NCBI GenBank assembly: GCA_951804945.1 | Contig: OX638156.1 | Span: 37,758,001 to 37,822,000 of the forward strand | DNA from: Podarcis cretensis | Lineage: Eukaryota | Direction: 5' to 3' | DNA: 64,000 nt | Shown here: piece by piece, positions 21,601-24,600 of the stretch | Position numbering within the stretch: the stretch's first letter is position 1 | How the letters are laid out: each line of letters opens with the position of its first letter | Program-made: the position numbers and the translations under genes | The notes under the pieces: generated by a model | What the model was told of the DNA's origin: nothing | Database searches by the model: none | Seen by the model: only the letters and a program-made list of their open reading frames with translations

Positions 21601-24600
21601 CACTTTCCTTAGAAACCTGCCTGCTCCATTATATTTGCTGGGGAGGTTGTTTTTCTTCTTCCAAGGGTGGCTGAGATGCAGCTGGCTGGGATGTGGCTTT
21701 TTCTATGGATAACGGAATTCCCCATCTTGGGAGGTCCATTTGGCCTCTATATTTTCCACCACATGACCAAGAATGTTGTTCGTTCCAGTAGATGTTTGGC
21801 CTGCCAGGTTCTAGTTTTAATGGCAAACCTCCATATCAGCTTTCTTGTTTCTTCTAATAGGCAAAGGAGTGCCTTTTGCTGGAAGGCTTCCAACAGTCTC
21901 TTAAATTAATGATACAAATGAAGGTATCTGGCCATTGAATCCTGGGGTATGGTGCTGATTATGGCAATTGTCTAGAGAATCCCTGTTGTGTGCAATAAGA
22001 GTTTTTGTATGCCAAGTCAGGGTCTTTGTTTTCATGTTCACTCTAGATGACTGCACCACCACAAAGCCATTGTGTTCCCCACATTGGATAAAATTCTACT
22101 TCCAGTTTGTTGTAGGGCTGATAAATATCCTTCAGGCACATCTGTACGTGTAGATCCCTGGATTTCATTCCCATGGTTCTGTACTTGATGATGTGACTGT
22201 GGCCTAGGAAACATTTCTGCTACACCAGTATGGGGAAGTAGTGAAGAGAGAAGGTTCAAAGTCCTTATCAGCCACGGTTTGGCTCAGGGTTACCATGACA
22301 ATCACTGGCTCTCTTTTTTAAAAAAATAATATTTATTACTTTTAAACCTTACAAACAAGAAGAAAAAGGAGAGAAAAAAAAGAAGAAAAAACAAAAGAAA
22401 GAAAAAACAGTACAATACAATATATAAACAATAAACAATACACCACACAACATTAACGCATTAAACTAAACAAAACAGAACAAAAACAATTTAAAAACAT
22501 ACATCATACCATTTCAATGCCTTATCTTTCATTCCCTTATTTCATCGACTTCCTCTCACCTCCCTTTTTGTATTCCACTTCTATTAATTGTTTCAACAAA
22601 TCCTTTCCATCTTTCACTATTTTCTGTCATATAAATATCTTAACTTATTTTAACCTTATTTTCCATTAATACTATAATACTTATTTATGCTTAACTCCTT
22701 ATAACATTTCTGCTAAAGCCATATAATTTCATTCCAACATTTTTCTAACACTCATTAATTTTACCATATTTCTATAAATAGACTTTAAACTTTTTCCAAT
22801 CTTCCCTGGTCTCGGATTCTGACAGTCATTTCCGTCAATTCCATATAGTCCATCAACCTGGTGCTCTTCTGTCCGAGGCTCTTAACTCTTTTCCAGGTCC
22901 CTTCTGCAAGTCTTCTTCGCATTTATACATACACTTTACTTTGTCTTCTGCTGATCTTGTTCTTAATTTCCTTTCTTTAATGCTGAAGAGTAGGTCTCGA
23001 GGGAGCTCCAACCTAACAATGTTTTTATTCCTTCTCGACATGTCATCCACATCTCTGTGGTTAAAACTAAAATCCAAAAGATATTTCAGGACGTGTTTCA
23101 AAGTCCCTCCAAATCTGCAGGTCCCCACAACTCCAATTTCCTCCTGAACCAGGTCCAGATCCCAAAGGTCAGTAAATCCCTGCATGAGGTGATCTATCCA
23201 ACTTTCCTTCTCCAGTCCAAGCAGGGTTCCAATCTGACTTTCTCTGAATTCAGTCATAGAGGGCAAGAACTTGTAATCATCAAGTTGCCTCTGTAAGGCT
23301 GGGGCTCTCTCCCTCTCCACTTGTATTACTTTAGGTTCAACAACCACAACTTTCTCCCTCGCTTTCTCCACCATTTGGCATGTCAAAGTAGATTCCTGTA
23401 TTGGTTCCTGAATAGTTTCTGTGTAGATGTTCACTTTTTGTCCCAAATTAGTCGCTTTTTGTCCCAAAATATCAATTTTAATATTCATCACGTCCATCTT
23501 TTTATGGAGCTGTTCCAATGACTCACTTATCTTGCATAGTGCAATCACTAAGGCTTCTTCTGTCGACATTCTCAAGCAATCCAAGGTCAATCTCACGGTT
23601 TTCTCTTGCAGCTGGAGATTCCACCAGCCCAACTCTTGTAACAATTTCAAAGGCTCCCTCTAGAGGGAAACAATTTCTGTTTGTATCCTTTTAAGCACAG
23701 TTCAAGCAGTAAAATTAGTTTCAATTTTCAGCTACTTTTACTCCTTTTTAAACGCAGAAGGAGACAATGAAAGCAATGTATTTCTCTTATTTAACTAGCT
23801 GTCAACAAACGTTTAATTCACAGTCAATGAATTTTCCCAAAACGTCGGTCTTGCTAGCAGCCCGTTTCCAGGTTCAGAGCGGTGGTAATTTAACTTTCTT
23901 CACTCTCTCCTGCAGGCTTACGCGATCCAAAATTTCCCCCCTCTTCTCCTGCCTCCAAGGGGGGTTTAATGATTTTAGCCGTTGGAAGTTTAATCCTTTA
24001 CATAGGACTTTCCAAGACTTTAGCTTGCAAATTCTTTGCTTCAATCTATTTACAAAAGGGGAAGGCGGACTTCCTGTTTGAAACCTCCCCGTTTCGGTGC
24101 CAAATTAAGACGTTTAAAAATCCAATTTTCTGTTCTACTCACGGGTAGTGGTTTAGAATCAAATTGTCCACAGGAAAAAGTCAGCGCTCTCCGGCAACAG
24201 CAATGCGGCTTCACTCCGTGAAAGAAGCAGTCAATTCGAAGCACCGCGCCGCTCACCCCACATCGCTCCGGATACCCGAAACTGGGTCTCCCCGCGAGTA
24301 GGGGAGGCGCAAAAGGTGCCAGCCGAATCCCACGTTCACAGGCTTCTCCCACCTGCGATTTTTAGTGGGTCTCCGCCTTCGCCGTGGAGGCCAGACCCTA
24401 AATTCCACGGAGCAAGTTCCTCCCGATCAGAGGAACTCAGCCATTGCCGGAGGCGCTAACCCGGAAGTCCGACAATCACTGGCTCTCAGCCTAACCTGCC
24501 TCACAAGGTTGTTAAGAAGATAAACAGGTGGCCATGTATGCCCCTCTGAGTTCCTTAGAGGAAGGGTGGCATAAAAACCTATTCAGTAAACAAATATGAT

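Follow-up and report, generated by a model that had tools for sequence, protein, structure and literature searches.

Within a 64,000-nt stretch of the Podarcis cretensis genome (assembly GCA_951804945.1, contig OX638156.1, positions 37,758,001-37,822,000 of the forward strand; hereafter the window), we analysed a minus-strand insertion of 2157 bp (22314..24470) that has the termini of a lizard L1 retrotransposon and a single open reading frame (ORF) which, judged by its sequence, is derived from ORF1. On balance, we lean towards reading this element as a full-length copy of a non-autonomous lineage of the HAL1 (half-L1) type, in which selection keeps the frame translatable and the encoded protein has lost RNA binding. 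HAL1-type elements are thought to keep ORF1 since a working ORF1p is needed in cis for mobilisation in trans; the lineage described here appears to transpose although the RRM (RNA recognition motif) of its ORF1 cannot be intact, and it still keeps the frame open. Positions given below are those of the window, and features lie on the minus strand unless stated otherwise.

Anatomy of the insert

The element is bounded by two identical 17-bp target-site duplications (TSDs; 3' copy 22297..22313, 5' copy 24471..24487, neither assigned to a strand), which lie 2174 apart and form the sole perfect repeat of that length within 21500-25300, so that the minus-strand insert described in the initial annotation is confirmed by identical 17-mers on both sides. 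A chance or tandem origin of the TSD was ruled out, since its two copies abut the L1 termini exactly and an older repeat reappears at the empty site. The nick is inferred to lie at a pyrimidine/purine step, TCTC/AG, which fits the TT/AAAA target preference of the L1 endonuclease only loosely (PMC5322556; here and below, papers are cited for the passages drawn upon). An Rfam scan of 21500-25300 gave no match.

The 5' terminus (24440..24470) reads GGACTTCCGG, a 16-nt spacer and ATGGC, and can be compared with the start consensus of Anolis clade-1 L1, GACTTCCGGTG-N8-ATGGCG, with family 5' ends given in the supplement (PMC5381506). Since this terminus matches the clade-1 start motif, the 5' end of the copy is complete. 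Of the motifs proposed earlier for this end, the YY1-like one is present only as a weak fit (mammalian CAAGATGGC vs GGCAATGGC in the element). The 5' untranslated region (UTR) that follows (23570..24470) measures 901 nt, close to the 0.9 kb first estimated, and holds 40 CpG, a CpG-rich first 400 nt and three short upstream ATG frames of 5, 10 and 1 codons; CpG observed/expected is 0.96 in its first 450 nt vs 0.25 window-wide. Clade-1 L1 of Anolis likewise has a long, CpG-rich 5'UTR of 792-1465 nt (PMC5381506). The CpG-rich part is flanked by a 23-nt inverted repeat (24066-24088 / 24449-24471, 74% complementary), and any antisense promoter there would face a host exon 388 bp off. We take the repeat arm to be a second ETS-like GGAAGT site, in the orientation opposite to the terminal one.

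The frame itself (22853..23569) runs for 238 codons from its ATG at 23569 to 22853 without an internal stop, as had been reported, and the other two sense frames contain 15 and 18 stops. It comprises a coil (approximately residues 1-112), the first half of an RRM, a remnant of the C-terminal domain (CTD) and a truncated tail; a 21-nt tandem duplication, equal to one heptad, lies in the coil-coding region at 23431-23471. A full phmmer scan with this ORF returned 14 matches at an expect value (E) <=0.001, 12 of them ORF1p-like, namely eight complete or partial lizard L1 ORF1 proteins and four short forms (P0006, P0008, P0009 and P0015); the other two, P0014 and P0016, were discarded as repeat or coiled-coil matches. 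The window protein is 61% identical to P0003 over 126 residues, 52% to P0010 in the CTD and 40% to P0019 overall. A profile of five lizard ORF1 proteins gathered 24 relatives, six of them Podarcis-named and one carrying the name 'L1 transposable element RRM domain', and the short-form profile matched the full-length profile with a probability of 99.5 and E 3.7e-22, which bears out the L1 origin and ORF1 homology first proposed. The structural model of a full-length relative, P0004, matches human ORF1p trimers (E 1.8e-8) as well as the isolated RRM, the latter with a template-modelling (TM) score of 0.74.

Searches with the single window protein were far less sensitive: none of 239 candidates was retained in a word-index search and none was found by sequence in the PDB, where full-length profiles reach human ORF1p weakly (E 0.019 and 6.6e-4). 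Foldseek returned nothing at E<=0.001 for the ORF model, and the Atlas matches to the ORF (best score 0.86) belong to unrelated families and were rejected. The initial annotation had pointed to the L1 ORF1 domains of Pfam as a check; run on the ORF, Pfam yields no L1 family and weak coiled-coil matches only. At E<=0.1, it also yields no L1 family for complete lacertid-type L1 ORF1 proteins. The blank on the window ORF is therefore uninformative, and domain-based annotation will overlook this lacertid-type ORF1p clade.

No second long frame is present, and the ORF2 parts of P0003 and P0010 do not match the element, in agreement with the earlier statement that ORF2 is missing. Past the end of ORF1p homology, at a point where P0010 continues, a deletion junction leads into some 110 nt of broken coding-like sequence (22745..22858); the overlap of the ORF stop with an ATG (TGATG) and the two-frame remnant noted there before are both present. 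From its position and its apparent resemblance to such sequences, this piece is putatively the extreme end of an L1 ORF2. An Atlas search with it gave no usable match. The last Gly and the stop of the ORF would be supplied by the same piece read in another frame. An AT-rich 3'UTR with T-rich repeats (22320..22744; AATAAA at 22337-22332), of the kind described for lizard L1 (PMC5381506), and an A tail (22314..22319) complete the element. These features were all found as first listed; the tail is merely six A, 12 nt past AATAAA and after a T run. From the TSD, the 3' end and the missing ORF2, we infer mobilisation in trans by L1 ORF2p.

The insertion had been called recent from its CpGs and unmutated TSD. 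CpG retention and the open frame do fit a fairly recent event; the perfect 17-bp TSD limits the age only to under ~30-90 million years, at assumed rates of 1-3e-9.

Losses in the protein and its short relatives

Compared with complete relatives, the window ORF starts at an internal Met, and the N-terminal region of 40-60 residues found in 17 of 17 complete relatives is absent; no remnant of this region could be found in the 5'UTR in any frame, with 44-197 of 200 shuffles scoring as high. Against P0019, the ORF shows three internal in-frame deletions of 7, 4 and 40 residues. The 4-residue deletion falls at the first RRM strand, and the 40-codon deletion (23101..23102) removes the second half of the RRM and the linker. 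With a junction that reads CAG|GT, splicing was weighed as a source of the deletions. Of the 86 columns that are near-invariant (at least 15 of the 17 complete proteins), the window ORF has lost 24 to deletion and keeps only 28 of the remaining 62; in leave-one-out controls, complete proteins keep 78-86 of 86-90. The predicted structure is ordered in the coil only, with a predicted local distance difference test (pLDDT) score of 94-98 over residues 1-70 and mostly <50 over residues 112-202, and finds no fold match.

With the N-terminal region and half of the RRM gone, and with conserved RRM and CTD residues drifted, the product cannot be a normal ORF1p. The ordinary ORF1-like protein that the initial annotation supposed to be retained thus lacks its N-terminal region, 40 RRM residues and 34 of 62 near-invariant residues. 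Human ORF1p binds RNA through its RRM and CTD acting together, and retrotransposition requires a charged N-terminus (PMC5940361). Judged by sequence and model, it is very likely that the ORF product no longer binds RNA.

As far as protein sequences tell, this shortened structure is the property of a lineage rather than of a single copy. The strongest sign is the common 40-residue gap, which is identical in P0006, P0009 and P0015 and shifted by two columns in P0008; a further short relative, P0035, exits the alignment before the gap. All five short relatives begin at the same internal Met position as the window ORF, and three of the five share its Pro-Gly-stop end, where the nearest complete relative, P0010, continues. 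Since the Gly and stop were probably made by the deletion junction, a common end implies a common junction. A short-form profile search recovered P0006, P0015 and the new P0035, and did not recover P0008 and P0009. In the tree, a branch (100/99) sets the six short proteins apart, next to the ORF1 part of P0003, and the window protein has the shortest branch among deep lineages. Derived residues are shared above a convergence null with P0006 (12/24, P 0.0015) and P0009 (12/20, P 0.0002).

Several observations weigh against this reading. The shared derived residues of P0008, P0015 and P0035 are not above chance; the tree has meeting long branches, and without the window ORF, P0006, P0008, P0009 and P0015 lack a well-supported link to P0003. 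Two of the five short relatives are broken in their C-terminal half (P0009 by an early stop, P0035 by leaving the frame), that the relatives are themselves transposon copies without ORF2 is read from their proteins only, and the 64-kb window holds no second copy of the element. The single copy would suit a one-off deletion of an ordinary L1 after insertion. Such an event, however, does not account for other records that share the RRM gap, the start and the stop, and near-invariant residues have changed without a stop, unlike post-insertion decay; we give this explanation practically no credence. A multi-copy lineage of HAL1 type is, in our assessment, highly probable, and the earlier view that the shortened structure is not confined to one copy stands at the level of proteins. 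The accompanying suggestion of a young lizard family is not supported: the window protein is merely 28-42% identical to the four longer short relatives (P0006, P0008, P0009 and P0015), and the lineage is therefore old or very fast.

Probable selection on an open but drifting frame

The amino-acid changes among the short proteins look neutral. Across ten short-protein pairs, the mean BLOSUM62 score of mismatches is -0.55 to -1.06, compared with -0.55 to -0.80 in a stop-free neutral simulation and 0.0 for pairs among nine complete proteins over the same columns, and the mismatches remain neutral-like when the coil and the RRM remnant are taken separately. The frame, on the other hand, is open where neutral drift would seldom have left it so: at 66, 58, 52 and 46% identity, the 238-codon frame was still open in 3, 2, 1 and 0 of 400 neutral runs, with indels uncounted. 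These comparisons have limits that count against a selected frame, as the simulation takes the window ORF as a stand-in ancestor with assumed mutation biases, protein databases are pre-selected for open frames, two of the five short relatives are broken in their C-terminal half, and misalignment or compensated frameshifts would equally yield neutral-looking mismatches. We nonetheless think it probable that selection has held the frame open.

If selection played no part, the RNA of a deleted L1 would ride like a processed pseudogene by means of its promoter and 3' end, and the open frames would be an effect of ascertainment. The neutral substitution spectrum, the restriction of protein libraries to open frames and the two broken short relatives all agree with this account. 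It is countered by the window copy, which comes from raw DNA and is open despite 34 of 62 near-invariant residues lost and three in-frame deletions; by the neutral runs, at most 3 of 400 of which stay open even before indels; and by three far longer-branched relatives that end at the same stop. On these grounds, we find the absence of selection improbable.

In the explanation that we favour, the lineage would have arisen from a lizard clade-1 L1 through internal deletions, the element would be transcribed from its internal promoter, and insertion would proceed by target-primed reverse transcription using the ORF2p and working ORF1p of autonomous L1s. The frame would be selected mainly for translation itself: an mRNA translated along most of its length would be more stable, and polysome-bound element mRNA would capture newly made ORF2p and ORF1p. 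Stops and frameshifts would then cost copies and amino-acid changes would not, and the intact coil of the window copy may add a tether to autonomous ORF1p. We hold it plausible, though short of probable, that translation as such is the main selected property. More tentative is the proposal of a long-lived squamate 'translation decoy' lineage, in which selection would act on the open frame alone and tolerate decay of the ORF1 sequence and RNA-binding domain; we consider it doubtful at present. Precedents are mixed. In the Dictyostelium element TRE5-A, a premature ORF1 stop leaves 35% activity and removal of ORF1 leaves 0.5% (PMC3159450). An ORF1-only reporter whose ORF1p is mutated in RNA binding does not retrotranspose in human cells, in an assay that supplied ORF2p alone in trans, and translated EGFP mRNA retrotransposes only rarely there (PMC11260458). 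Translation alone is thus insufficient in the human-cell assay, which speaks against translation as the selected property, as do two features of the window coil: its core is hydrophobic at 17 of 20 positions, equal to full ORF1p, and it is predicted to join a trimer with Podarcis ORF1p coils.

These coil features favour the main rival, a coiled-coil adaptor, in which the coil alone is selected and the nascent protein co-trimerises with autonomous ORF1p, bringing RNA-binding subunits and ORF2p to its own mRNA. Multimerisation with autonomous proteins has been proposed as the role of non-autonomous long interspersed nuclear elements (LINEs) that retain ORF1 (PMC5786205). The coil of the window copy is confidently modelled over residues 1-70, as stated above, and coil indels are mostly of 7 or 14 residues. 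One window coil with two Podarcis ORF1p coils scores 0.67, and the best of three controls 0.00; the runs show contact agreement of at least 94% and a partner pLDDT of at least 81, and 51 of 78 solved pairs reach the score mark, compared with 2 of 108 mismatched ones (39 of 65 and 2 of 126 for eukaryotes). Such a pass, however, does not imply binding: the likeness of these coils to solved ORF1p coil trimers, and their close kinship, would lead one to expect it. In the diverged relatives, coil core hydrophobicity is 28 of 44, against 31.4 expected under neutral drift, coil mismatches are neutral-like (-0.71 vs -0.02 in full-length proteins), and a Pro sits at a core position in three of five short proteins. 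An adaptor would also leave the open C-terminal half unexplained, and we judge it unlikely.

A source gene that serves the host, perhaps by inhibiting L1 in a dominant-negative manner, could likewise maintain a frame, the insertion then being a retrocopy. Truncated human ORF1 proteins do suppress L1 in trans (PMC5605252), partial-domain host genes derived from ORF1 are known (L1TD1, PMC4161310; Lyosin, PMC12129022), and an arms race could account for open frames on very long branches. The insert, however, has complete L1 ends and UTRs with no host 5'UTR, its mismatch spectrum lacks a signal of conservative substitution, and the cited suppression needs the N-terminus plus the coil (PMC5605252), the former being the region missing from the window ORF. 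A host-kept source is thus a very improbable explanation, and selection on translation of a transposing lineage remains the one that we prefer.

Known systems and the host locus

HAL1 elements are described as having an L1 5'UTR, an ORF1-derived frame, no ORF2, a poly(A) end and a TSD, and as depending on L1 reverse transcriptase and endonuclease (PMC5753468, PMC5322556, PMC13756887). The window element has these structural traits: the L1 5' end and promoter region, an ORF1-derived protein alone, and the poly(A) end with TSD. It differs in its parent, a squamate clade-1 L1, and in its ORF1, from which the N-terminal region and half of the RRM are missing and whose sequence drifts neutrally; the human HAL1 proxy, in contrast, needs an RNA-binding ORF1p in cis (PMC11260458). 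A complete RNA-binding ORF1p, by both sequence and model, is not what the window ORF encodes. The initial annotation placed HAL1 in some other vertebrates as well as mammals, and the cited passages of PMC5753468, PMC5786205, PMC5322556, PMC8535693, PMC13756887 and PMC4859970 name it for mammals only. Half-L1 elements would accordingly be extended to lizards. Faster ORF1p evolution in HAL1 has reportedly been noted by Bao and Jurka in 2010. We found no report of a squamate half-L1 in the literature searched, and Repbase, Dfam and subscription journals, which lay outside that search, may already hold the family.

Compared with lizard clade-1 L1, as known from Anolis and from Podarcis ORF1p records, the element shares the 5' motif, the long CpG-rich 5'UTR, the AT-rich 3'UTR and the ORF1p sequence. 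It is 2.2 kb long rather than ~6.4 kb, its ORF1 has 238 aa vs 334-376 aa in complete relatives, and the ORF2 with endonuclease and reverse transcriptase that marks an autonomous L1 is absent. TRE5-A.2, HeT-A and Ag-Sponge resemble it in keeping ORF1, lacking ORF2 and being mobilised in trans (PMC5786205, PMC3159450), and differ in belonging to other clades and hosts and in having ORF1 proteins that are taken as functional. L1TD1 and Lyosin also have ORF1-derived coding sequences with missing domains (PMC4161310, PMC12129022), but these are single host loci under purifying selection, with a ratio of nonsynonymous to synonymous rates (dN/dS) of 0.4-0.5 in three clades for Lyosin (PMC12129022). 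Unlike such domesticated genes, the window element is a complete mobile unit with a TSD and without a conservative signal.

A leftover frame that stays open raises the question of why hitch-hiking elements need any protein. Whether ORF2p acquisition by ORF1-only RNAs, by SVA and by the precursors of processed pseudogenes requires passage through the ribosome was described as unclear in a 2024 paper (PMC11260458). Copies of the window family would let this question be tested by selection analysis and reporter assays. Should the translation decoy prove true, the lineage would be a natural experiment on ribosome passage of non-autonomous mRNAs for ORF2p capture, and would fill a gap between HAL1 elements and non-coding derivatives resembling short interspersed nuclear elements.

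A different fate of ORF1p sequence is suggested by two UniRef records from Podarcis muralis (P0005 and P0026), in which a TRIM RING/B-box/coil is fused in frame to the ORF1p coil end, RRM and CTD, replacing PRY-SPRY. Two readings of the fusion are possible, an artefact of the gene models and a TRIM-ORF1 exaptation; the 10 supplement files of a paper on L1-exon domestication contain no mention of 'TRIM39' (PMC12129022).

The element lies within an older short repeat, of which the left part (22282..22313, one TSD included) and the right part (24488..24590) remain, neither with an assigned strand. Further copies of this repeat occur in the window at 39393-39535, 48740-48880 and 47536-47582, and with the insert and one TSD taken out, the rebuilt empty site can be aligned over the junction to two window copies (E 3.8e-13 and 2.1e-5), upholding the claim that the insertion splits an older repeat. 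The surrounding intron begins after 18610 and holds the element in antisense orientation; the 5' end of the element is 388 bp from a plus-strand coding exon (24859..24911) with AG/GT edges that is in frame with the exon ending at 18610. A SPRY match (E 8e-4, one of 48 frames scanned) lies downstream of this exon, and both the antisense intronic site and the distance of ~390 bp given earlier agree with these measurements. The host gene is presumably RSPRY1.

Elsewhere in the window, two LINE 3' pieces (14790-15162 and 48955-49114) are 92% identical over 160 nt, one of them with 120 open codons. Presumably, they are RTE/Bov-B-like; Pfam gave no match on either piece. The window also contains two GC-rich arrays of direct and inverted repeats (2568-3158 and 38797-39128), with units of ~108-160 nt that are 70-90% alike.

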